Positions 2 to 24,664 of a stretch of DNA of 32,000 nucleotides are shown in pieces. The DNA lies in NCBI GenBank assembly GCA_003194425.1, contig PQXB01000001.1, forward strand, positions 130,444 through 162,443, read 5' to 3'. Numbering within the stretch: position 1 is the stretch's first letter; each line of letters begins with the position of its first letter. This DNA comes from Candidatus Methanophagaceae archaeon. Its GTDB lineage: Archaea > Halobacteriota > Syntropharchaeia > Alkanophagales > Methanospirareceae. Under the pieces are notes generated by a model that was not told the DNA's origin, made no database searches, and was given only the letters and a program-made list of their open reading frames with translations. A program made the position numbers and the translations under genes.

Positions 2-721
2 AAGGTTGCAGTGCTGGACAAAACGAAATGCGTAGAGTGCGGACTCTGCGAGGAAGCCTGCAGGTTCAACGCCGTCTACAGCAGCGAGGAGCAAGGCTAC
101 GCGGTCAACCCTGCACGCTGCGAGGGCTGCGGGGCGTGCGTCTTTGTCTGCGCAGCGTACGGGCAGAAGGCACTCGCACTGAAAGAGCGTGTCTCTGGCT
201 ACGCGTTCGTGTCAAAGACGAGCTACGGCACGATGGCGCATGCGCAGCTAAAAGCCGCGGAAGAGACCTCTGGAAAACTGGTTACAGTTGTCAGAACGAA
301 CGCACGGCAGGCTGCGGAAGCGGAGGGTTGCGAGCTCGTTCTGATTGACGGCTCGCCGGGTATTGGCTGCCCTGTGATCGCGTCCCTGACTGGCGTGGAC
401 CTCGCACTTGTCGTTACCGAGCCAACGATGTCAGGGCTGCACGACCTTGAGCGAATCTTGGATGTAACTCGGCATTTCGGGATTGCCTCCGCGGTCTGCA
501 TCAACAAATACGACATTAACGAGGAGAACAGCCGTAGGATTTCAGAGTTTTGTCAGGAGCGCGGAATTCCGGTGGCTGGAAAAATTCCCTACGACCCCTT
601 TGTTACCGCAGCGATGGTCGCGGGCTTGCCTGTCGTTGCGTTCTCGGCTGGAGAGGGAGCGGGGCAGGGAGCGGTCGTGAATGCGATAAAAAATGTGTGG
701 CAGGCTGTAAATTCATGTTAA
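2..721 (+). CDS. MinD/CooC-superfamily P-loop ATPase with inserted 2x[4Fe-4S] ferredoxin domain (5' truncated by window edge)
   Basis: The frame is open to the window edge. Two ferredoxin motifs (CVECGLCEEAC, CEGCGACVFVC) are followed by a MinD/CooC-like core (LIDGSPGIGCPVIAS, VVTEPTMSGLHDLERI, INKYD). The architecture matches COG1149-type ATPases. The Walker A motif would lie upstream of the window. Confidence 0.8.
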   Translation, partial: KVAVLDKTKCVECGLCEEACRFNAVYSSEEQGYAVNPARCEGCGACVFVCAAYGQKALALKERVSGYAFVSKTSYGTMAHAQLKAAEETSGKLVTVVRTNARQAAEAEGCELVLIDGSPGIGCPVIASLTGVDLALVVTEPTMSGLHDLERILDVTRHFGIASAVCINKYDINEENSRRISEFCQERGIPVAGKIPYDPFVTAAMVAGLPVVAFSAGEGAGQGAVVNAIKNVWQAVNSC

Positions 722-3342: not shown

Positions 3343-4227
3343 CTACTCTTTTTTCACCACATCTAACGAGAAGCCCAGACTTCGTGCCGAATGCGTAATC
3401 GCGCCGATTGAGACGACGTCAACGCCAGTAGCAGCGAACTCCTTCACATTCTCCTGTTTTATCCTGCCCGACGCCTCCAAAATCAAGCCGCCGCTGCCAC
3501 CGCTGCCGCTGTCCCGAAGACTTCGCTCGGTCAGCAGCCGCACGCACTCTCTCACCTCCGCCACGGGCATATTGTCGAGCATAATTATGTCAACGCCCAA
3601 CTCCGCGGCTTTGAGTGCGTCCTCAACGCTCTCGACCTCGACCTCAATCTTTCGCGTAAAACTCACCCGCTCTTTCGCCCGCCTGACCGCGTTCTCAAGC
3701 CCCATCAATTTTATGCAGTTGTCTTTAATTATCACCGCCTCGTACAGCCCGAACCTGTGCGGGTCGCCGCCGCCGATGGAAATCGCCTTCTTCTCGTATT
3801 TCCTGAACCCCGGCGTCGTCTTCCTCGTCCCCGCCACCCGTACTTCCTCCTGCTTCCCCCCCTTCTCCTGCTTTCCCCGCTCACTCACTTTTCTCACCTC
3901 TTTTACAAACCTGCTCGTCAAGGTCGCTACGCCGCTCATTCTGCCCAGGAAATTAAGCACGAGCCGTTCCGCCTTCAAAACCCTCGCTCCCGCACCTCGC
4001 ACCGTCAAAATAACATCTCCGCTCTTTACCTCGTCCCCGTCCTCAAACTCGGAGGAGCACTGAACCGAGAAGTAGTCAAATATCTGTTTCGCCTCCTCCA
4101 GACCCGCGAGGACGCCCTCCTCTCTCGCCGTTATTTCCGCTCTGCAGTCCGTGTACGGCACGATCTCCTCGTAGTCCTCGTGCCCAACATCCTCTTCCAG
4201 AAAACTTTCTATCTCCTTTAACAGCAT
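3343..4227 (-). CDS. nadC: Nicotinate-nucleotide pyrophosphorylase (quinolinate phosphoribosyltransferase)
   Basis: 294 aa. Motifs: GTRKTTPGFRKYEKKAISIGGGDPHRFGL, IIKDNCI, IMLDNM, EASGRI. Low-complexity inserts: ERGKQEKGGKQEE and SGSGGSGG. Confidence 0.9.
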   Translation of the reverse strand: MLLKEIESFLEEDVGHEDYEEIVPYTDCRAEITAREEGVLAGLEEAKQIFDYFSVQCSSEFEDGDEVKSGDVILTVRGAGARVLKAERLVLNFLGRMSGVATLTSRFVKEVRKVSERGKQEKGGKQEEVRVAGTRKTTPGFRKYEKKAISIGGGDPHRFGLYEAVIIKDNCIKLMGLENAVRRAKERVSFTRKIEVEVESVEDALKAAELGVDIIMLDNMPVAEVRECVRLLTERSLRDSGSGGSGGLILEASGRIKQENVKEFAATGVDVVSIGAITHSARSLGFSLDVVKKE

Positions 4228-4284
4228 TTGCGTTAAACCCTTTCTTAAAAAAGAGCTTTAGCAAAAGAAAGGTGTGAAGGGAGA

Positions 4285-5736
4285 ATGAAAATAAGCAGCC
4301 CGATGGAAGTCTGGAAATATCTTCCGGGAACGAATTGCAAGGAGTGTGGGGAGAAGACCTGTCTGGCGTTTGCGTCGCTGCTGTTAGAGCGGAAGAAGAA
4401 GTTGGAGGACTGTCCGCCGTTGTTTGACCCGCTTGCGAAATCTAAATACGGGGAGAAGGGGCGGAAGTTGGCGGAGTTGCTGGCGCCGGAGGTGCGGGAG
4501 GTCGAGATTGGAGTGGGCGAGAGAGCGGTGAAAATTGGCGGCGAGGATGTCTTGCACAGGCACGAGAGGACTTTCTTTAACCGAACGGCGCTGGCTTACG
4601 ATGTTTGGGACACGATGCCAGAGGCGGAGTTGCGGGCGCGGGTGAGGCGAATTTCGGAGTGGCAGAAGTTTTATGTCGGCGAGTTTTTGCGGTTGGACGC
4701 GGTTGCGGTTCGCTCGGTCTCGGACGACGCGGAGAGGTTCGCGGAGTGCGTGAGGCAGGTGTCGGAAGAGACGGACTTACCACTCGTGCTCTGCTCGTTC
4801 GACGCGAGGGTAGTGGAGGCGGGTTTGAAGTTGGCGGGTGTGGCGGAGCGGCGACCGCTGATTTACGCTGCGACCGAGAGGAATTGGAGAGAGTTTCTGG
4901 GGCTTGCGAAGCAGTTTGAAGTTCCTGTAACGCTCTTCTCTGAAAACCTCGACACGCTAAACCGTCTTGCTCTGACCTTCTCTTTGGCGGGCGTAAAAGA
5001 TCTTGTCTTGGACCCGGGGACGCAGCCGGTGGGGGCGGGGCTTGAGGAGAGTTTTTCAAAGTTCGTGCGGCTGAGGCGTGCGGGAATTGAGGGGGAGGAG
5101 AAGGGGAAGGAGGTTGCGTTTCCTTTGATGGCGGTTCCGATGACTACGTGGGTAGGGCTGGCTCGAGAGGCTCGTGAAAATGAAGGGAATTCAGAGACTT
5201 TAGAGGCATCTTACTGGGAAGCAATTCTCGCAGACTTGTTCATCCTAAAATACGCGGACATAATGATTCTACACTCGACGGAGCCGCACTCGTTGATTCC
5301 TGTTCGGACGCTCGTTGCGAATATTTACACTGACCCGCGGCGGCCGGTGAGCGTGAATCCGGGGTTGAAGGCGGTTGGAAATCCGAGCGAGAGCTCGCCG
5401 CTCTTTGTCACGACCAACTTCGCCTTGACTTACTACACGGTAGAGAGCGACATTTCGTCTAACAAGATTGACTCGTTCTTGGTCGTGGCGGACACGGACG
5501 GGTTGGGCGTGGAAGCCGCGGTTGCGGGGGGGCAGCTCAACGCAGAGGTGATGAAAGAGACTTTGGAGTCGTTTGCGGTGGCGGAGAAGGTAAAGCACAA
5601 GACAGTGGTACTGCCGGGGCTTGCAGCACGGATTTCGGGCGAGACCGAGGACGCTACGGGGTGGAAGGTGGTTGTGGGTCCGCGGGACAGTGGTCAGATT
5701 CCGGGCTGGCTGGAGAAGAATTGGCCGCCGGAATAG
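4285..5736 (+). CDS. cdhE: Acetyl-CoA decarbonylase/synthase complex gamma subunit (corrinoid Fe-S protein large subunit)
   Basis: 483 aa. The N-terminal [4Fe-4S] motif LPGTNCKECGEKTCLAFA is typical of CdhE/AcsC, followed by a TIM-barrel-like body. GGGAG lies upstream of the ATG. Confidence 0.9.
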   Translation: MKISSPMEVWKYLPGTNCKECGEKTCLAFASLLLERKKKLEDCPPLFDPLAKSKYGEKGRKLAELLAPEVREVEIGVGERAVKIGGEDVLHRHERTFFNRTALAYDVWDTMPEAELRARVRRISEWQKFYVGEFLRLDAVAVRSVSDDAERFAECVRQVSEETDLPLVLCSFDARVVEAGLKLAGVAERRPLIYAATERNWREFLGLAKQFEVPVTLFSENLDTLNRLALTFSLAGVKDLVLDPGTQPVGAGLEESFSKFVRLRRAGIEGEEKGKEVAFPLMAVPMTTWVGLAREARENEGNSETLEASYWEAILADLFILKYADIMILHSTEPHSLIPVRTLVANIYTDPRRPVSVNPGLKAVGNPSESSPLFVTTNFALTYYTVESDISSNKIDSFLVVADTDGLGVEAAVAGGQLNAEVMKETLESFAVAEKVKHKTVVLPGLAARISGETEDATGWKVVVGPRDSGQIPGWLEKNWPPE

Positions 5737-7517: not shown

Positions 7518-8855
7518 ATGAAAATTGGAGTGGTAATTCACGGACCCGAGGTAGTGGACGAAGGCGAGGCGGAGGAGGCGGTAAAACGGCTGAAGGCTGC
7601 GAACGCGGGGTTTAAAGTAGAAGCGGCTTTGGGCGGAATAACAGGTAAAACCGCGGTTGTTGACGCAGGCTTACGGCGTCTAATTGACATCAGTAAGGAC
7701 TTGAGACCCTCTGAAGTAGTGCGGGATTTTGTCGCTCGGGGAATAGATTTTGTCGTCTTGGTAAATCGTGCGAAGACCAGCGAGAGCGGGTTTCGGCTCG
7801 GCGAGGGGATTCTGCGGAATTTCTTCGCGACTGGCGGTACTGGCGGTACTGGCGGTACTGGCGGTACTAAAGGCGGTGCAACGGCAACGGCGAAGATTTC
7901 GTTTCTGCAGTTGGAATTCTGTGGCAGGAGGATTCTTCGTTGGGTCGTGAAGCCCGGGGACGAGGAGGTGTGTAAAAGGCTGACAAGAGTTTTTAGCGAG
8001 TTTAGGGTTGAAGAGGTTGCGGAGAGCAAACACGAACTCGGGTCGAGGTCGAGGTGCCGAAGAGACGCTCGTTCGGGTTTAGTGTACCGCGAGATAAGAG
8101 GAGTGAGTCCCGGTGAGAAAATCGTTGTGGACGGCGTAGTTGTCGGAGTGGCGTCGCAGGCTAACGCGGTTACGTTGGTTGCGAGGGAGGGGCGACTCGT
8201 AGAAATTCTGGGCGGCACGTTGATAAAGCACAACCTTGAAAAGCTGCCGAGTTTGGATCTGGAGCGGGAGATGGTTAAGACTGCGAGTGTAATTCGGAGG
8301 ACGAGACCGAGAAGGAGGGGGAAAAAAGAAAAGTCAAAAGGAGGAAAGAGAAAGAAGAAGGCGTGCTTCTTCTACACGGTTGAGGGCATTTTCCCGAGGC
8401 TCGTGGGAAGGGGTGCTGGAGCAGGAGCCGAAGCAGGAGCCGAAGCAGGAGCCGAAGCAGGAGCCGAAGAGGCGGAGGTTGCGGTTGCGGTGACCGTGGG
8501 GGACGACACGACGAGCATTGCCGGCGACATCTTGAAGCGGTTCGGAGTTCGGCTGATTGGGATTACAGACGGCGACGCAGACGGGCTGATTGACGGAATT
8601 AAGACAGGAGCGTTGGAGGAGTACGAGAAGTTTCTGCCGCCTGGCTCGGTGGTAGTGAGGTTGAAACCCGAGACGGACGACCTTGTAGGGCAGCGGGTGA
8701 AGGCAGAGATTTTTAATGGAGGAGAAGAGATTGAGTTGGAAGGAGTAGGGGAAGAAGAAGTTGCGAGGTGGTTTGAGGAGTTGAAGCGTCGGGTGCTTGA
8801 GTTGGCAGGCGAGGAGGTTGTTGGGGTGCTGAGTTCTTCGACTTATGAAGGTTGA
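7518..8855 (+). CDS. Conserved archaeal hypothetical protein (possibly DUF2117-like); function unknown
   Basis: 445-aa ORF with coding-like composition. The N-terminus MKIGVVIHGPEVVDEG and the central IRGVSPGEKIVVDGVVVG, HNLEKL and GITDGDADGLI resemble uncharacterised methanogen proteins from memory only. It contains (TGG)x4, (AGAE)x4 and a polybasic stretch. Confidence 0.55.
   Translation: MKIGVVIHGPEVVDEGEAEEAVKRLKAANAGFKVEAALGGITGKTAVVDAGLRRLIDISKDLRPSEVVRDFVARGIDFVVLVNRAKTSESGFRLGEGILRNFFATGGTGGTGGTGGTKGGATATAKISFLQLEFCGRRILRWVVKPGDEEVCKRLTRVFSEFRVEEVAESKHELGSRSRCRRDARSGLVYREIRGVSPGEKIVVDGVVVGVASQANAVTLVAREGRLVEILGGTLIKHNLEKLPSLDLEREMVKTASVIRRTRPRRRGKKEKSKGGKRKKKACFFYTVEGIFPRLVGRGAGAGAEAGAEAGAEAGAEEAEVAVAVTVGDDTTSIAGDILKRFGVRLIGITDGDADGLIDGIKTGALEEYEKFLPPGSVVVRLKPETDDLVGQRVKAEIFNGGEEIELEGVGEEEVARWFEELKRRVLELAGEEVVGVLSSSTYEG
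7830..7868 (+). repeat. 9-nt tandem repeat x4 (actggcggt), encoding (TGG)x4
   Basis: Perfect tandem copies, in frame with the 7518 ORF. Confidence 0.95.
8421..8468 (+). repeat. 12-nt tandem repeat x4 (gcaggagccgaa), encoding (AGAE)x4
   Basis: Perfect tandem copies, in frame with the 7518 ORF. Confidence 0.95.
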
Positions 8856-8922: not shown

Positions 8923-9495
8923 ATGAAAGAAGAAGAGAAGGAAGTGCTAAAGGTATTGGAAGAGAATGCGAGGCTGAGCTACGGGGAAATTGCGAGGCTG
9001 GTCGGAGTGGCGGGCGGGGAAGCAGGCGGGGAAGCTGGAGGGGAAGCTGGTGGGGAAGCTGGTGGGGAAGTAGGCGGGGAAGCTGGTGGAGAAGCGGCGG
9101 TGAAAAAGATTATTTCAGAGTTGGAGAAGAAGAAAATTATAAAAAAATATACAGTGGTGGCGGACTGGGAAAAGGCGGGAGTAGAGAGCGTGCAGGCGTT
9201 AATTGACATAAAAGTCAGTCCTGAAAGGGAGACTGGGTACGACCCGGTTGCAGAGCGGATTTCGCGGTTTCCAGAAGTGCGGTCGGTGCGGCTGGTCTCG
9301 GGCGAGTACGACCTCTCGGTGCTGGTGGAGGGGAAGACGATGAGAGAGGTTGCGTATTTCGTTGCCGAGAAGATTGCACCGCTGGAGCAGGTTCGGAACA
9401 CGCTGACGCACTTTTTACTGAAGACTTACAAGGAGGACGGAGAGATTTACGGCGAGGAGGAGGGGGAGGGGAAGAGGCTGGCGGTGACGCTGTAA
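8923..9495 (+). CDS. Lrp/AsnC family transcriptional regulator with (GGEA)x7 insert in the HTH
   Basis: 190 aa. N-terminal HTH (LSYGEIARLVGV ... AVKKIISELEKKKIIKKY) and a C-terminal RAM/AsnC_trans_reg-like domain (IDIKV, VRSVRLVSGEYDLSVLVEG). Confidence 0.85.
   Translation: MKEEEKEVLKVLEENARLSYGEIARLVGVAGGEAGGEAGGEAGGEAGGEVGGEAGGEAAVKKIISELEKKKIIKKYTVVADWEKAGVESVQALIDIKVSPERETGYDPVAERISRFPEVRSVRLVSGEYDLSVLVEGKTMREVAYFVAEKIAPLEQVRNTLTHFLLKTYKEDGEIYGEEEGEGKRLAVTL
9013..9096 (+). repeat. 12-nt tandem repeat x7, encoding (GGEA/V)x7
   Basis: ggcggggaagcw-type units, with six GGGG runs spaced every 12 nt on the coding strand. Confidence 0.95.
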
Positions 9496-15960: not shown

Positions 15961-16551
15961 ATGTGGAAAGAGGTAGTGGCGAAGTTTGAGGGTCTGCCCT
16001 CGCAGAAGAGGGTCGTTGAACTGCTCTTGGAGCGAGGGTTTCAAGTCAGTGCGGAGGGCAGTGCGGAGGGCAGTGCGAAGGGCAGTGCGAAGGGCAGTGC
16101 GGAAGGAAGGGTGAAGGGAAGAATTGTCTCGGGCGGGATTGAAATTCCGCACACGCAGGTGGCGAACGAGACAGGCGTGGACAGGCGGGTAGTAGACGAG
16201 ACGGTGAGGCGGATTTTGAGGGACGCGGGGCTGCGGGAGATTTTTGAAAATATCAGGTCGGTCGCGTTTCTTGCGGAGGTCGCGCCTTTGCTGGGGCTGT
16301 GTGTGGTTGTAATTTACCCAACGGACGCGAGGGAGAAGGGGATTCTCGGCGAGGTCGCTACGGTGATTGGAAAGCGCGGGGTTAGCATTCGTCAGGCAGT
16401 CAGCGACGACCCCTACCTCGTGGACGACCCGAAACTCACGATCATCGCGGATAAAAATATTCCAGGCGACTTAATTGCGGAAATCGGGCGGATAAAGAGC
16501 GTGAAAAGCGTGCAGATTCTCTCGCCCCGTCTCCCGTCCCGCAGAGCGTAA
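15961..16551 (+). CDS. ACT-domain putative regulator of amino-acid metabolism (COG2150-like)
   Basis: 196 aa. LPSQKRVVELLLERGFQV, IEIPHTQVANETGVDRRVV, GILGEVATVIGKRGVSIRQAVSDDP and KLTIIADKNIPGDLI match the archaeal family from memory. It carries a (SAEG/SAKG)x5 insert. Confidence 0.7.
   Translation: MWKEVVAKFEGLPSQKRVVELLLERGFQVSAEGSAEGSAKGSAKGSAEGRVKGRIVSGGIEIPHTQVANETGVDRRVVDETVRRILRDAGLREIFENIRSVAFLAEVAPLLGLCVVVIYPTDAREKGILGEVATVIGKRGVSIRQAVSDDPYLVDDPKLTIIADKNIPGDLIAEIGRIKSVKSVQILSPRLPSRRA
16048..16107 (+). repeat. 12-nt tandem repeat x5 (agtgcgRagggc), encoding (SA[E/K]G)x5
   Basis: Directly visible and in frame. Confidence 0.95.
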
Positions 16552-18887: not shown

Positions 18888-20171
18888 ATGAAAATGAAGG
18901 AAAAGGAGAAGAAGGAAAGAGGGGAGAAGCGAAACAACGGCAGCAGCGGCAGGGCGAGAAGAAGGGAAGCAGTGATTTTTACAGGACTTACTTGCGTGTT
19001 TGTGTGTGGTTTTGTCTTCGCGGCAGTAGGGACGCCGCCCCCCACCGCCGCGGGCGCAGAGGGCGCAGAGGGAGGCGGCGGCGCAGGGGGAGGGAAGACC
19101 TGGTACGTGGACGACGACGGCAGCACGAACGCGTGGGACAACGGCACAACCGACGGCGGGAACTACTGGAGTGACCACGCCTGCACGGGCAACCCGTCAG
19201 ACGGAAGCGAGCCGTACGAAATCGACGCGGACAGCACAGACCGCTACCCGTTTGAAGATGTGAGCTGGTGGGCAGCACCACCACCGCTACCAACACTACC
19301 ACCGCCATCAAAGCCCGCGGTCACAATCGCGACCGACAAGACAGAATATTCGCCGTCTGGCAAAGGGAAAACAATTGGTTATTTCACGGTGAGCGGTGAC
19401 GAAATCTGCCTAGAAGAAAGGAAGCCAATTGTTTATTTCTTCGGTTCCGAAGGGTGCGGGTACTGCAAGTGGGAGCATCCAGTGTTCCTAAGTGTTACCT
19501 CAAGGTTTGGGGATTTCATTTCGCTGCACGACAATATGGGAAATTTCAGCGCGGACAAGGAGATTTTTGAGAAATATAATCCCGGTGGTAGCGTGCCGAC
19601 ACTGGTTCTGGGCTGCAAATATTACCGACCCGGCGCTGGCACAAGCATCGGCGAGGAGCAGGAAGCGAAGGTCTTGACAGCTTTGATTTGCGATTTAACT
19701 GACAGTAAGCCAGTAGAAGTCTGCTCTGACCCTGAGGTTGAGGATTTGATGAAGAAAAACACGATGAACCTCACAGACGAGATGAAAATCACAATCGGCT
19801 TGAAGAACCCAACGAGCAGCCCGGTAAACGCTTACTTCGTCTGGAATCTCAGTCTGCCGGACTACGGCTACGAGTGGACGATGATGGTAGTGCCACTGGC
19901 GCCGCTGCCTGCGGAGTTCGAGCAGTGCTACAACTTCTCGCTGCTTATTCCTGACTGGGGTGCGGTTGGGTTTAACGCGAGTTGGACGGTAGCGCTGCTG
20001 GAGGAAACGGCGCCGTACGAGACGATTTGCGAGGACTCTGCGGACTGGAGGTACGTGCCTGCAGGGTCAGGGAGAGGGGTAGTAGAAGAAGAAGGAGGAG
20101 TAAAGCCTGCTGAGGTAGGAGAGGAATTGAAGAGAAGGGTAGAGGAAGAGGGAGTGGAGTTGCCGTTTTAG
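18888..20171 (+). CDS. Membrane-anchored/secreted chimeric protein: beta-helix head/tail remnant, Pro-rich linker, thioredoxin-fold CxxC domain and a C-terminal domain
   Basis: 427 aa. It has a basic N-terminus and a TM/signal anchor (AVIFTGLTCVFVCGFVFAAVG). KTWYVDDDG is followed directly by GGNYWSDH...EPYEIDADSTDRYPFED (NosD/CASH-type ends). The linker is APPPLPTLPPPSKP. The thioredoxin fold shows GCGYCKWEHP with a cis-Pro context (SVPTLVLG). Confidence 0.7.
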   Translation: MKMKEKEKKERGEKRNNGSSGRARRREAVIFTGLTCVFVCGFVFAAVGTPPPTAAGAEGAEGGGGAGGGKTWYVDDDGSTNAWDNGTTDGGNYWSDHACTGNPSDGSEPYEIDADSTDRYPFEDVSWWAAPPPLPTLPPPSKPAVTIATDKTEYSPSGKGKTIGYFTVSGDEICLEERKPIVYFFGSEGCGYCKWEHPVFLSVTSRFGDFISLHDNMGNFSADKEIFEKYNPGGSVPTLVLGCKYYRPGAGTSIGEEQEAKVLTALICDLTDSKPVEVCSDPEVEDLMKKNTMNLTDEMKITIGLKNPTSSPVNAYFVWNLSLPDYGYEWTMMVVPLAPLPAEFEQCYNFSLLIPDWGAVGFNASWTVALLEETAPYETICEDSADWRYVPAGSGRGVVEEEGGVKPAEVGEELKRRVEEEGVELPF

Positions 20172-20205
20172 GTTAGGCGGCTCTCCTCTTTTTTTATTTT
20201 TTAGT
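20112..20205 (+). repeat. Direct repeat copy 1 (94 bp): last 20 codons, stop and terminator of the 18888-20171 gene
   Basis: 92/94 identical to 20727-20820, offset 615 bp. Confidence 0.95.
20157..20202 (+). terminator. Hairpin (gagttgcc/ggcggctc, 2 G-U pairs) followed by T7-A-T6
   Basis: The stem is 20157-20164 / 20176-20183, with T runs at 20189-20202. It overlaps the stop codon of the upstream gene. Confidence 0.45.
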
Positions 20206-20209
20206 TAAA

Positions 20210-20464
20210 ATGAAAAAATATAAGGTCCGAGTAATAATTGACCCCTGTGAAGAGGGGGGATATTTTGCTACGTGCCCAGCCTTGCAGGGCTGCCACGCAG
20301 AAGGAGAGACCTACTTAGAGGCTTTGGAGAACATTCAGGATGTTATCAAAATTCATCTTGAAAGCCGAGCGGAATTGGGAATGTTGCCACCCGATCAAGC
20401 AGAAGTTGTTAGCGTGCTGGACACATTCAAAGTGGAATTAATGGTACCAGTGGCGGAAGCGTGA
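20210..20464 (+). CDS. hicB: HicB-like antitoxin (short UPF0150 form, no DNA-binding domain)
   Basis: 84 aa. YKVRVIIDPCEEGGYFATCPALQGCHAEGETYLEALENIQDVIKIHLE is a textbook HicB N-domain. Confidence 0.8.
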   Translation: MKKYKVRVIIDPCEEGGYFATCPALQGCHAEGETYLEALENIQDVIKIHLESRAELGMLPPDQAEVVSVLDTFKVELMVPVAEA

Positions 20465-20694
20465 GTAAAAAGCTGCCCTCTGTAACCGACAGGGAAGTTA
20501 TCAAGGTTGCCAAAAAGCTTGGTTTCACATTTTACAGGCAGGCAAAGGGCAGTCACGAAGTTTGGCGTAGGGCGAGTGACGGGCGGCATACTGTGATACC
20601 AAGACACGCAGGTAAAATTATCAAACGGAAGACGCTGAAAAGTATCATAAATGATTTTGGAATAACCGTTGAGGTCTTTAACGGGCTGAGATAA
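20461..20694 (+). CDS. hicA: HicA-family mRNA interferase toxin
   Basis: 77 aa. The GTG start overlaps the hicB stop by 4 nt (GTGA). Motifs: VIKVAKKLGFTFYRQAKGSHEVW, VIPRHAGKIIKRKTLKSIINDFGI. Confidence 0.85.
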   Translation: MSKKLPSVTDREVIKVAKKLGFTFYRQAKGSHEVWRRASDGRHTVIPRHAGKIIKRKTLKSIINDFGITVEVFNGLR

Positions 20695-20726
20695 ATATAT
20701 CCAACAAAGAGATTGCATCCCTCTCC

Positions 20727-20820
20727 GAGGTAGGAGAGGAGTTGCAGAGAAGGGTAGAGGAAGAGGGAGTGGAGTTGCCGTTTTAGGTTAGGCGGCTCTC
20801 CTCTTTTTTTATTTTTTAGT
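20727..20820 (+). repeat. Direct repeat copy 2 (94 bp), an orphan copy of the gene 3' end and terminator
   Basis: It has two mismatches to copy 1 (K to Q in the relic reading frame). No upstream ORF is attached: an in-frame stop lies shortly upstream and there is no ATG. Confidence 0.95.
20772..20817 (+). terminator. Duplicated copy of the hairpin plus T-run terminator
   Basis: Same sequence as 20157-20202. It would terminate hicBA transcripts. Confidence 0.35.
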
Positions 20821-20858
20821 CAAGGTTTTTAGCACAGGTAAAAAAGTTGTTGTCTATA

Positions 20859-21152
20859 ATGAATCTTCGGTTTTACAGAGACCCAGCGACAAATCTTCCA
20901 CACATCTACAAACACGGGGTAACAGAGCGGGAAGTAGAAGAAATTTTAGCACAGCCCGGCGAAGACCGTCTTGGAAATGAGGGCTCGCGAGTTGCTGTTG
21001 GTCAGACTCGAGAAGGCAGGTTTCTTCGTGTCGTTTATGTGCCTGACAAAGAGCCTAATAGTTTATTTGTGATAACGGCGTATAATTTAATGGGAAAAGC
21101 ATTGTTAGCGTACCGAAAGCGAAAGCGAAGGAGGAGAAGGAGAAGAAAATGA
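20859..21152 (+). CDS. BrnT/DUF497-like putative toxin
   Basis: The ATG is at 20859; the ORF track starts at the TTG at 20847. IYKHGVTEREVEEIL, GQTREGRFLRVVYV and LFVITAYNL resemble BrnT-type toxins. It has a poly-Arg tail and overlaps the downstream gene by 4 nt. Confidence 0.55.
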   Translation: MNLRFYRDPATNLPHIYKHGVTEREVEEILAQPGEDRLGNEGSRVAVGQTREGRFLRVVYVPDKEPNSLFVITAYNLMGKALLAYRKRKRRRRRRRK

Positions 21153-21382
21153 AGCAGCAGGATAAGTTTCCACCTGGCTGGAAAGAAGAGCGAGTGCGGC
21201 GTGTTTTAACGCACTACGAGAACCAAACAGACGAGGAAGCGGTAGCTGAAGACGAAGCCGCTTTTGAGCTTGAACCTGAAATTGAACCAGAACCCGAAGG
21301 GCAGAGAGGCCAGACGATTATGGAGATCCCGCAAGAACTGGTTCCTAAGGTTCGTGCTCTAATTGCTGAATGTCAGTGCTGA
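21149..21382 (+). CDS. Putative cognate antitoxin (small acidic protein)
   Basis: 77 aa with an ATGA overlap with the upstream toxin-like gene. WKEERVRRVLTHYENQTDEEAVAEDEAAFE ... IMEIPQELVPKVRALI is a pattern I recall next to DUF497-type toxins. The family name is uncertain. Confidence 0.5.
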   Translation: MKQQDKFPPGWKEERVRRVLTHYENQTDEEAVAEDEAAFELEPEIEPEPEGQRGQTIMEIPQELVPKVRALIAECQC

Positions 21383-21475
21383 ATCGTCCCTTTTCAATCC
21401 CGACGACCCTTTCTTCACTACAACTAAAATGCTCATAGGAATATATCTGAAGAAGTAGGAGAGAGGGATGGAGTT

Positions 21476-21520
21476 ACCACACACCCACTCACCACACCAC
21501 TCACCACACACCCACTCACC
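21476..21520. repeat. Imperfect CA-rich tandem repeat (ccacacacccactca-like units x3)
   Basis: It lies immediately 3' of the trpC stop, between convergent genes. Confidence 0.8.
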
Positions 21521-22316
21521 TCGCACCCACAAACTCCCGCACCTTCTCCTCAATCTTCTCAGTCCCAGAATTCATAACCGCCGTGCCCACGAGCAGAGCG
21601 TCCGCACCCGCCGCAAACATTCTCGACGCCTCCTCCTCGCCTTCAATTCCGCTCATCGCGACCAAAACGACCTCGGCAGGGAGTTCGGCTAATCTTGGCT
21701 TCACCTCTGCCGCAACCCGCTCAAAAGTCTCCAAATCCACCTCAAGCCTCTTTAAGTCACGGTTGTTCACGCCCACCAAAACCGACTCCGAAATCCCCTC
21801 CAAATCCGCCTCAAAAATCTTCCTCCACGACTCCCCGTCCACCTCGACCAACGCCTCCAGCCCGAACGAGGCGGCTTTCCTCGCCAACTCCCGCAGCCTC
21901 TTGGCACTCAAAAATCTCGCAATTAGCAGCACCGCGTCCGCACCGCTCGCGTACGACTCGTGCACCTGAAACTCGTCAAAAATAAAATCCTTCCTCAAGA
22001 CCGGCAGCTCAACCTCCGAGAGTTTAACAGCCCTCAAATCCTCCAAACTCCCTAAAAACGCCTCGTCTGTCAAGACCGAAATCGCACACGCCCCGCCGTT
22101 CTGCATTCTCCTCGCTGCTTCTACAGACCCAATTTCTGTTTGTAATTTTGTCCCTTCTTCTTTCAACCCCCTCCGCTTCACTTCCGCGATTACAGCCCTT
22201 TTTCCCGCTCCTTCCCCCGCTCTCTTCGTCTCTAAAATCGCCTCCTTCAGACTCCTCCGCTCCTTTAACCGCTCAACCGTCTCCCGCTTCCTCTTTAAAA
22301 CTTCTTTTACATTCAT
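21516..22316 (-). CDS. trpC: Indole-3-glycerol-phosphate synthase
   Basis: The start was chosen at MNVKEVLKRKRETVERLK (cat at 22314-22316). Motifs: VIAEVKR, ISVLTDEAFLGSLEDL, LPVLRKDFI, ALVEVD, VGVNNRDL. It overlaps the GT4 3' end by 44 nt. Confidence 0.85.
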   Translation of the reverse strand: MNVKEVLKRKRETVERLKERRSLKEAILETKRAGEGAGKRAVIAEVKRRGLKEEGTKLQTEIGSVEAARRMQNGGACAISVLTDEAFLGSLEDLRAVKLSEVELPVLRKDFIFDEFQVHESYASGADAVLLIARFLSAKRLRELARKAASFGLEALVEVDGESWRKIFEADLEGISESVLVGVNNRDLKRLEVDLETFERVAAEVKPRLAELPAEVVLVAMSGIEGEEEASRMFAAGADALLVGTAVMNSGTEKIEEKVREFVGAR

Positions 22317-23467: not shown

Positions 23468-24664
23468 TCAAAAACTACCGAGCAGGCTCTCGACGTCCGT
23501 GACCGCCACGCAGACCGACTCGTCCGACGCACCGTAGTACAGAAAAACCTTCCCGTCTCCGTCTTGCTTTCTCTCCTGCTCTCGCTCTCTCTCCCTCTCC
23601 TGTTCCCTCTCTTTCTCCCTCTCCTGTTCCCTCTCTCTCTCCCTCTCCTGCTCTCGCTCCACAACGCCGTTCGAGAAGACGACATTTCCAAAGAAGCCCT
23701 CGGTCTCGTAAGGCTCGGTCGGGGTCAGCAGCGGCACGGAGGCTCGCCTCACTACGCGGAACGGCTCCTCAAGGTCAAGCAGCAGGCAGAAAAGCGAGTA
23801 AGCGTCGTCCGCCCCTTTACCGTGGCAAATTACCAGCCAACCCTCGGAAGTCTTAATCGGCGGTGCTCCCGCCCCTACCCGCTCCGACTCCCAGTTCTCC
23901 TCCTTCCTCTTACTCTCGCGGTCGCGGGTGCGGAGGACGCACTTGTGGTTGCCCCAGTGCAGAAGGTCGGGCGACTCGGCGTACCAAATCGCAGGCTTCC
24001 CGAAGCCCGAATTGTTGGGGCGGTGGAGAGCCACATATTTCCCACCTACTTTCTCTGGAAAGATTGCGACATCCTTGTTCTCGGGGCAGAAAATCAGCCC
24101 CTTCCTCTCGAGGTTCTTGAAATCCTCGGTAACCGCCAACGCAGTCGCCCACGAGTCTTCGGAGACTGCGGTGTAGTTGATGTAGTATTTTCCGTCGATG
24201 AAAGTCACTCGGGCATCCTCTACGCCGTACCTCTCCGCCTCGCACGCGGGGTAAATGAACGGCTCGTCCTCTACGGTAAAATTGACCCCGTCCCTGCTCC
24301 TGGCTACTCGGATGTGGCTCAAGGTCGAGAGGAACTCCCGCCCTTTGTAGGCGACGGCACGAGTGTCTTTCAGCGTCACCGCGGGGTCCGACGCCTTGAA
24401 CTCCAAAATATCCGGGACTGCAGTGCCGTCACCAGTGCCGTCACCAGTGCCGTCTCCGTCGTCCTCAAACCGACAGACTGGCGTGCGGACGTAGCCTTCT
24501 CTGGGTTCGCAGCCCTCCGCGACTCGCACCAGCAGAATAATTTCGTCGCCGAAGTTCACAGCACCCGGATTAAAAGCACCGAGCACCTTGTAGCCGTCTC
24601 TTGTAGGCTTTACATCGCGGGGCTTAATTATCGGGTTGTTTTTATGCCTCACAATCATTTTCAT
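23468..24664 (-). CDS. GH130-family glycoside phosphorylase/hydrolase (beta-mannoside type)
   Basis: 398 aa. NPIIKP, GAFNPGAV, VEDARV, YYINYTAVS, NKDVAIFPEK and YYGASD are typical of GH130. It carries two repeat inserts. Confidence 0.85.
   Translation of the reverse strand: MKMIVRHKNNPIIKPRDVKPTRDGYKVLGAFNPGAVNFGDEIILLVRVAEGCEPREGYVRTPVCRFEDDGDGTGDGTGDGTAVPDILEFKASDPAVTLKDTRAVAYKGREFLSTLSHIRVARSRDGVNFTVEDEPFIYPACEAERYGVEDARVTFIDGKYYINYTAVSEDSWATALAVTEDFKNLERKGLIFCPENKDVAIFPEKVGGKYVALHRPNNSGFGKPAIWYAESPDLLHWGNHKCVLRTRDRESKRKEENWESERVGAGAPPIKTSEGWLVICHGKGADDAYSLFCLLLDLEEPFRVVRRASVPLLTPTEPYETEGFFGNVVFSNGVVEREQEREREREQEREKEREQEREREREQERKQDGDGKVFLYYGASDESVCVAVTDVESLLGSF
23571..23660 (-). repeat. 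About 24-nt tandem repeat x3-4, encoding an E/R/Q/K stretch (EREQEREREREQEREKEREQ...)
   Basis: ctccctctcctgttccctctcttt-type units are visible on the plus strand, in frame in GH130. Confidence 0.9.
24421..24456 (-). repeat. 12-nt tandem repeat x3 (cagtgccgtcac), encoding (DGTG)x3
   Basis: Directly visible, in frame in GH130. Confidence 0.95.

Follow-up and report, generated by a model that had tools for sequence, protein, structure and literature searches.

A predicted hicBA toxin–antitoxin cassette lies between two copies of a neighbouring gene's 3' end and terminator in an ANME-1 archaeon

Introduction

Operons of the hicAB family are abundant in anaerobic methanotrophic archaea of group 1 (ANME-1), where they lie in structural-variant hotspots and show strain-level insertion and deletion together with evidence of horizontal transfer (PMC13385816, Nat Commun 2026); such insertions and deletions have recently been put forward as driving the diversification of ANME-1 strains. 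In that study the HicA protein of other ANME-1 operons was toxic in Escherichia coli and was neutralised by HicB; its main text contains neither 'direct repeat' nor 'homologous recombination' and proposes no mechanism of insertion. Here we analyse a hicBA pair of the same clade and gene family, which lies in a 32,000-nucleotide stretch of a Candidatus Methanophagaceae genome (GCA_003194425.1, contig PQXB01000001.1, positions 130,444 to 162,443; hereafter the window). The pair is bracketed by two copies, R1 and R2 (together R), of the 3' end and terminator of the upstream gene, termed X, and it is this duplicated gene end around hicBA that is newly described here. Full-text literature searches returned no matching description of toxin–antitoxin (TA) cassettes with duplicated 3' gene ends. 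How "naked" TA pairs move between chromosomal sites without a mobility gene is an old and poorly resolved question.

For the orphan arrays found at type VI secretion system (T6SS), Rhs and contact-dependent inhibition (CDI) loci, homology-facilitated illegitimate recombination is the proposed origin (PMC5361080, citing Jackson 2009 and Koskiniemi 2014). Our locus resembles these in several ways. Homology to a conserved part of a resident gene would let an incoming module recombine there, the gene's own 3' end would be pushed downstream and survive as an orphan, and the repeated segment would permit further recombination. There is also one illegitimate joint, with microhomology at that joint in a second case, from ANME-1 GoMg2. 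Unlike at those loci, hicBA is functionally unrelated to its anchor gene, X is not a toxin with a swapped tip, the displaced piece, made up of no more than 60 coding nucleotides and a terminator, hardly differs from the incoming one, and the host is an archaeon.

The locus can also be compared with Campbell-type integrative elements, with their attL and attR sites, and with their derivatives that lack an integrase (cis-mobilisable elements, CIMEs). As in these, the 3' end of the target is duplicated, the gene is left intact, a one-copy empty site exists and reversible gain and loss are plausible. It differs from them in lacking an integrase, here and in every related contig, in measuring just 518 bp, in having as its repeat a plain homology of 97 nt along which variants appear to recombine, and in that a second case uses an unrelated repeat. 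With the superintegron of Vibrio the locus shares tandem small TA pairs separated by a repeat of about 100 nt (VCR/attC in Vibrio), and in both a TA pair may protect the region from deletion. In contrast to the superintegron, we see neither IntI nor an attC structure nor core sites, and the repeat consists of coding sequence of the host.

The hicBA cassette and its bracketing repeats

The sole long dispersed repeat across the 32 kb is a direct repeat of 97 nt, found by a repeat search of the window, whose two copies are identical at 94/97 positions and spaced 615 nt apart (Table 1). An initial annotation of this DNA had reported the pair as 94-bp direct repeats with 92/94 identities, which the search upholds and extends. 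The exact-match core between R1 and R2 is 75 nt, and a 52-nt core of R occurs exactly twice in the window and was absent from 100 dinucleotide shuffles. R1 is in frame with X and takes in its stop codon (TAG, 20169-20171), a small hairpin (20162-20181) and the sequence T7AT6 (20189-20202). R2 has no open reading frame (ORF), its frame being closed by upstream stops and containing no start codon. The first copy is the true 3' end, stop codon and T-rich terminator of X and the second an orphan, as had been proposed. The T-run of R2 would be expected to terminate hicBA transcription.

Between the two copies lie hicB, hicA and 32 nt, and nothing else. This agrees with the content first described for the interval; its length, then given as 521 bp, becomes 518 nt once the repeat is taken as 97 nt. 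The hicB stop and the hicA start overlap in the sequence GTGA, and the two adjacent genes form one operon. Both hallmarks of a type II HicAB module, the HicA domain and an adjacent HicB-type antitoxin, are present, and we predict that this hicBA is a TA pair. NCBIfam gave no name for any of the five proteins examined. The GC content at third codon positions (GC3) is 0.47-0.49 in hicBA, 0.39-0.45 in the following gene pair and 0.60-0.72 in the flanking genes, which bears out the earlier remark that hicBA differs in composition from its neighbours.

The spacer between the hicA stop and R2, termed j, includes the 27-nt sequence CCAACAAAGAGATTGCATCCCTCTCC. Homology to the other contexts of hicBA stops at 20695-20699, where the spacer begins. 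R2 positions 7-20 recur, inverted and imperfectly, in its last ~13 nt (TGCATCCCTCTCC), and a hairpin at 20714-20746 spans the j|R2 joint with a folding energy of -9.1 kcal/mol (z -2.96), a rank within the top 2% among windows with a comparable GC content. This hairpin may be the trace of a fold-back or of a template switch, or it may be there by chance.

Further copies of the repeat, for which the initial annotation had proposed a search, were not found in the Joint Genome Institute (JGI) metagenome collection or in IMG/VR. A scan of the former with a 24-nt core of R returned two contigs, both of this locus and in no other context, and IMG/VR held nothing close to the R core. A possible third, degenerate copy of R at 21450-21485 was also considered and dropped; this stretch is ancestral intergenic DNA, present in empty-site contigs that carry no cassette.

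Table 1. Coordinates of the features discussed, states of the X-trpC site and other contexts of hicBA. Positions refer to the window unless a contig is named; related contigs are given by L number.
Feature	Position or contig	Strand	Description
Gene X	18888..20171	+	secreted/surface-type mosaic: N-terminal TM/signal (transmembrane or signal) region, thioredoxin-like middle, conserved C-terminal domain from 19781
R1, functional copy	20112..20208	+	19 sense codons of X + TAG, hairpin, T7AT6, AGTTAA
hicB antitoxin gene	20210..20464	+	84 aa; PF15919, 32.4 bits (cutoff 27)
hicA toxin gene	20461..20694	+	77 aa, GTG start; PF07927, E 4.7e-18, 65.5 bits (cutoff 27)
Junction spacer j	20695..20726	+	32 nt between hicA stop and R2; unique in window
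R2, orphan copy of X 3' end and terminator	20727..20823	+	hairpin 20777-20796, T7AT6 20804-20817, AGTCAA
DUF4258 toxin-like gene	20859..21152	+	PF14076, 26.4 bits; first gene of second, independently variable TA-like cassette
DUF4258 partner gene, presumed antitoxin	21149..21382	+	77 aa, 4-nt overlap; always co-occurs with DUF4258 gene
Relic of third small antitoxin-like ORF	21391..21434	+	contains FNPDDPFFTTTKM; 88.6% over 44 nt to L019 7229-7272
Ancestral X-trpC intergenic remainder	21445..21515		
trpC (indole-3-glycerol-phosphate synthase)	21516..22316	-	PF00218, E 2e-53; convergent with X; conserved right flank
X architecture comparison regions	18888-20171; L003 1-2045; L124 1989-2638		
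Site state H0	L022		X-R-trpC; single R
Site state H1	L007		X-R1-hicBA-R2-trpC
Site state H2	window and most contigs		X-R1-hicBA-R2-DUF4258 pair-trpC
Site state H3	L124, 363-kb contig of GCA_026133975.1		X-R-DUF4258 pair-trpC; single R
Other hicBA context			ATP-grasp -> hicBA -> purM-like
Other hicBA context			eCIS (extracellular contractile injection system) core <- ... hicBA -> <- AAA ATPase
Other hicBA context			small ORF -> hicBA -> <- methyltransferase

States of the site in the population

The locus was recovered from metagenomes through exact-protein look-ups, and the evidence is at the level of contigs. We observed the arrangement R1-hicBA-R2, with 615-nt spacing and copy-specific variants, in 13 other contigs from 13 samples assembled by MEGAHIT, SPAdes and the JGI and NCBI pipelines. 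Because it recurs across so many contigs, samples and assemblers the duplication is real, and the misassembly that the initial annotation had allowed for does not account for it.

All four states of the site (H0 to H3, Table 1) occur in DNA with 96-99.5% identical flanks, and relative to close relatives hicBA, one R copy and 32 nt form a 615-bp insertion/deletion. Sites with one copy of the repeat, the empty sites whose existence had been raised at the outset, are present in L022 and L124. In L022 trpC is 99.5% identical to that of the window, and one JGI sample yielded both this empty contig and the filled contig L024. Among about 20 contigs none carries the duplication without hicBA, the arrangement that would speak for an ancient local duplication unrelated to the cassette.

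The DUF4258 gene pair that follows R2 in the window is absent in L007, L018 and L022. In haplotypes without it, a diverged version of 21445-21515 (GGAATAGAAAATATAG...) lies directly after the terminator T-run, which belongs to the single R in L022, to R2 in L007 and, where the contig ends, to R2 in L018. Past its homology with H0 the duplicated unit continues for 6 nt (AGTYAA), up to precisely where the DUF4258 insert begins on the left. On account of this extension the simplest placement of the duplication is in an H3-type background, H1 then being a recombinant with an H0-type chromosome. We also asked if the single R of L124 is a chimera of R1 and R2 that would prove pop-out of the cassette, and found it non-diagnostic: its combination of variants is also that of an R1, in L023/L127.

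In sample ERZ2433807, represented by contigs L016 and L008, the SPAdes coverage of the trpC-side contig, which ends at window position ~21463, was 556x, compared with 333x for the contig carrying X-R1-hicBA-R2-DUF4258. This gap suggests that a sizeable share of the population in that sample is without the DUF4258 cassette, or is otherwise arranged.

Recombination in and around the repeat

Among the R1 copies, positions 15/19 (A..A or G..C) and position 95 (T or C) occur in all four combinations, and this four-gamete pattern suggests exchanges between positions 15/19 and 95. Across 12 contigs only 2 of the 518 columns of hicBA and j are variable, compared with 19 of 331 in the adjacent upstream part of X and 10 of 801 in trpC. 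Between the window and L003 the same 331-nt segment of X differs at 14 sites, and X is a 427-aa thioredoxin-type protein in the first and a 680-aa NosD-type protein in the second, with hicBA identical in both. Breakpoints in or beside R1 follow from finding identical hicBA on X segments that differ at 14 sites. The cassette is therefore young and carried on diverged backgrounds, and the 97-nt copies evidently serve as ordinary substrates of homologous recombination, placing hicBA on different strain backgrounds. A linkage between the presence of hicBA and the C-terminal allele of X was looked for and not seen; the alleles track X type.

A second bracketed cassette in ANME-1 GoMg2

On contig L120 of ANME-1 GoMg2, hicBA (3753-4237) is bracketed by 238-nt direct repeats (3468-3704 and 4350-4587) that are 89.5% identical. 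Copy B belongs to a convergent AAA-ATPase gene, as its genuine 3' end, and copy A is an orphan. Both in L120 and in the window, then, an orphan gene end lies beyond the module and the functional copy is intact, as displacement of a resident gene end would produce. The two L120 copies show 19 coding differences, which split 3/4/12 over the three codon positions (binomial p = 0.007), and their ratio of nonsynonymous to synonymous divergence (dN/dS) is 0.14. This pattern indicates that they are diverged functional alleles joined by recombination, and not one sequence duplicated in place and then decaying. The R copies in the window differ at 2-3 sites, too few to judge allele origin.

The joint between copy A and the region upstream of hicB in L120 sits at an imperfect microhomology, AAAAAC..CAA, common to the AAA gene and the hicB leader. 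In the related contigs L116-L119 hicBA occupies the same place with no orphan copy, a donor-like arrangement. Between L120 and L116 the synonymous divergence (dS) is 0.085 in hicA and 0.57 in the adjacent end of the AAA gene, and from this difference it follows that the hicBA module was recently exchanged between lineages.

Mechanism of insertion

We put at roughly an even chance that homology-anchored recombination, either of Campbell type or as homology-facilitated illegitimate recombination, displaced the resident gene end, and that the repeats now permit gain and loss of hicBA. An insertion by homologous recombination, bringing a copy of the target with it, was among the options of the initial annotation, and it fits the data best, given the repeat haplotypes, the diverged copies in L120 and the presence of hicBA on diverged X. 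Under this mechanism hicBA would have arrived on DNA in which it was linked to a copy of the 3' end and terminator of X. That DNA would have recombined with the chromosome through the homology of the X end, as a circle by a single, Campbell-type crossover or as a linear fragment by one-sided homology-facilitated illegitimate recombination, and the other side would have been closed by one illegitimate joint, j|R2. X would thereby keep an intact end, R1, and the displaced resident end with its terminator would persist downstream as the orphan R2. The R copies could also permit loss of hicBA by pop-out, and the TA pair would counter-select deletion between the repeats. Host recombination would do the work, with no dedicated recombinase. 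Both the form of the incoming DNA and the direction of the individual events are what we infer from the arrangement.

Several points weigh against this mechanism. Neither the donor arrangement (X-R-hicBA-j without R2) nor a circular form was found for the window. One in-place event in an H3-type background needs fewer steps for the window. Polarity is ambiguous, and L022 and L124 may be secondary pop-outs instead of ancestral empty sites; the contigs that lack hicBA could in principle also be assemblies that skipped the loop across the 75-nt exact core. The four-gamete pattern could come partly from strain mixing in consensus contigs, and homologous and site-specific recombination yield an identical product. 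The L120 case is one contig of a metagenome-assembled genome (MAG) whose pattern of similarity to L116 is complex, and bracketing repeats are present in just 2/4 of the hicBA contexts.

The main rival is capture in place. A staggered break or replication template switch, of the microhomology-mediated end joining (MMEJ) or microhomology-mediated break-induced replication (MMBIR) type, at the X terminator of an X-R-DUF4258 haplotype would have captured a hicBA fragment of ~518 bp, with fill-in duplicating the 97 nt that separate the two nicks or switch points and homology coming into play only later. A single event would then explain the window, and the way in which the duplicated unit passes the ancestral homology by AGTYAA, up to the DUF4258 insert, fits with this. 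Only the hicBA coding module is common to the other contexts, so that the fragment that moved was very small. A comparison of upstream sequences revealed a possible TCAA microhomology at the left joint, and the inverted-repeat hairpin over the right joint is a possible fold-back signature, but as a feature it ranks in the top 2% and no higher. The missing donor haplotype also counts in favour of capture. Against it stands L120, where the 3/4/12 distribution and the low dN/dS are unexpected unless a later allelic replacement is added. To our knowledge, target duplications of 97-238 nt are far beyond the known products of prokaryotic transposition or end joining. Taking these points together we regard capture in place as rather unlikely.

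A further possibility is that R represents the attL and attR sites of a recombinase encoded elsewhere, and that hicBA is a remnant or non-autonomous passenger, CIME-like, of an integrative plasmid or virus that targeted the 3' end of X. Direct repeats that restore the 3' end of a gene, together with a one-copy empty site, are the classic signature of integrase-mediated integration, and TA modules are often retained at the edges of integrated elements. The repeat part of this signature is present here, in the duplicated 3' end of the target gene and the single-copy empty sites. The integrase part is not. Neither an integrase nor a transposase is encoded by the major ORFs of the 32-kb window, as the initial annotation had noted for the locus, and the flanks of the related contigs encode no integrase. 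The sequence R-hicBA has no match among GenBank phages or PLSDB plasmids, IMG/VR contains nothing close to HicA or HicB, and no virus or plasmid with R or this hicBA was found in these collections. None of about 20 contigs carries a longer element, the spacing being 615 in every case, and the repeat of L120 is a wholly different one, the 238-nt end of the AAA gene, and would call for a second specificity. The variant combinations in R1 suggest crossovers along R and not in one core. We found nothing that supports a trans-acting site-specific recombinase, and we consider this explanation improbable.

A transposon or insertion sequence (IS) is likewise at odds with what we see: the duplication is 97 nt long, where such elements leave target-site duplications of 2-15 bp, no inverted repeats flank the insert and there is no transposase. 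The initial annotation had further considered an integron-like cassette, in which R would be a site of attC type that recombines in folded, single-stranded form. Two small TA-type cassettes do lie in tandem, as in Vibrio chromosomal integrons, and the length of R is within the attC range. When folded on both strands, however, R does not form the full-length imperfect palindrome of an attC site (R''-L''/L'-R'); it forms only a small terminator-like hairpin of 9-15 bp at the stop codon (z about -2.5 to -2.9) and leaves 34 nt at its X-coding end unpaired, and inspection of R revealed none of the attC core motifs RYYYAAC/GTTRRRY. No intI is present, R is the coding end and terminator of a host gene, R occurs nowhere else in the collections searched, and the DUF4258 cassette is bounded by R on the left only, its right end meeting ancestral intergenic DNA. 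We find the integron reading scarcely credible. The integron, transposon and resident-integrase readings all fail their defining tests. That the second R copy is a misjoin, to which the contigs ending inside the repeat (L014, L017, L024 and L129) might lend some colour, has a negligible chance of being correct in view of the copy-specific variants seen across pipelines.

Spread of the module in ANME-1

The exact HicA protein is present on 18 contigs, and homologues with 88-95% identity occur in other ANME-1 genomes. The hicBA gene pair has ~84% nucleotide identity to three other ANME-1 contexts (Table 1), and across contexts the nucleotide homology is confined to the coding module, from window position 20194/20207 to 20683-20702. 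Between GoMg2 and the window HicA is ~92% identical and TrpC only 59%. Since HicA is so much more conserved than TrpC in this comparison, and since the four contexts share the coding module only, hicBA is horizontally mobile in ANME-1 as a minimal module.

It is tempting to extend the homology-anchored mechanism to ANME-1 as a whole. Minimal TA cassettes would then spread recurrently without a recombinase, by becoming joined to the 3' end and terminator of a host gene and crossing over once at that point, and would build, 3' of conserved genes, small integron-like arrays of TA modules and displaced terminators, with the X site (hicBA, the DUF4258 pair and the relic of a third antitoxin) and the AAA-ATPase locus of GoMg2 as examples. 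This extension is doubtful. A direct-repeat scan of ~1 Mb of retrieved loci showed the bracketing pattern to be uncommon beyond these two loci. If it were general, gene 3' ends with their terminators would be landing pads or hinges for archaeal defence or TA cassettes through host recombination alone. The locus itself offers a testable picture, with one population showing an empty site as well as three filled ones, a 97-nt handle made of a gene end and terminator, and a second independent example. It is also relevant to metagenome assembly, where contigs break, or may collapse, at such repeats.

We also observed an interspersed element resembling a miniature inverted-repeat transposable element (MITE), with the terminal inverted repeats GACACAGATTAACGCAGATTAACAC ... 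GTGTAAATCTGTGTCTTAAATAGAAGGAAGCTATAC, which recurs in the intergenic DNA of several ANME-1 genomes (L109 3255-3382 and 5150-5313; L019 7535-7660). In L109 it directly adjoins the hicB start codon. A related motif, CTCGTGTAATCTCGTGG, is found at the left edge of the L120 repeat (L120 3462-3500 and 4345-4385).

The anchor gene and the neighbouring modules

Homologues of X are thioredoxin-family and NosD/beta-helix proteins of Methanophagales, and with the 680-aa NosD-type alleles X shares only its C-terminal part. An exact look-up of protein X returned no record, and a scan of the genome collection with its C-terminal domain found zero relatives. The gene is a hotspot of structural variation, with three architectures among near-identical strains: a 680-aa NosD/beta-helix form, the 427-aa form of the window, in which a thioredoxin-like domain (~19273-19780) takes the place of most of the beta-helix, and a short form. 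Common to all of them are the C-terminal domain from window position 19781 and a motif at 19111-19272.

The gene pair that follows R2 had been described as BrnT-like. It does lie directly after the second copy; its toxin-like gene passes the Pfam threshold for DUF4258, and the match to BrnT is weak and sub-threshold (E 0.02). The 77-aa partner has no Pfam or NCBIfam match, and IMG/VR contains nothing close to the DUF4258 protein. In L024 (~430-450, minus strand) and L017 the DUF4258 gene is frameshifted by an 11-nt insertion, a local duplication GTGATAAAGG, and the partner gene is intact. These frameshifts represent early decay of the second TA-like module.

At the right end of the DUF4258 insert sits the 44-nt relic of a third small ORF. 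Its intact counterpart encodes 57 aa (L019 7183-7356 and L020 5334-5507) and lies just 3' of a distant homologue of X with ~70% nucleotide identity, where it is followed by a PIN-like C-terminal remnant. The site 3' of X seems to gain and lose TA modules repeatedly.

Beyond this site the window is core chromosome of a methanogen-like archaeon, with CdhD, MtrA, MtrH and trpC among its genes. The names attached to homologues of X and HicA indicate Methanophagales (ANME-1). In a scan of the genome collection with trpC the species representatives were only 61-66% identical, none of them a close reference genome, the best matches being Methanophagales and Syntrophoarchaeum. Several housekeeping genes of the window contain in-frame tandem arrays of 12-nt units (23562-23657, 8409-8482, 8998-9107 and 16035-16118), which encode low-complexity inserts that are charged or rich in Gly/Ala, for example EREQEREREREQ in a GH130-family gene. 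The length of these arrays varies by strain, and products of 376-398 aa are called in related contigs.

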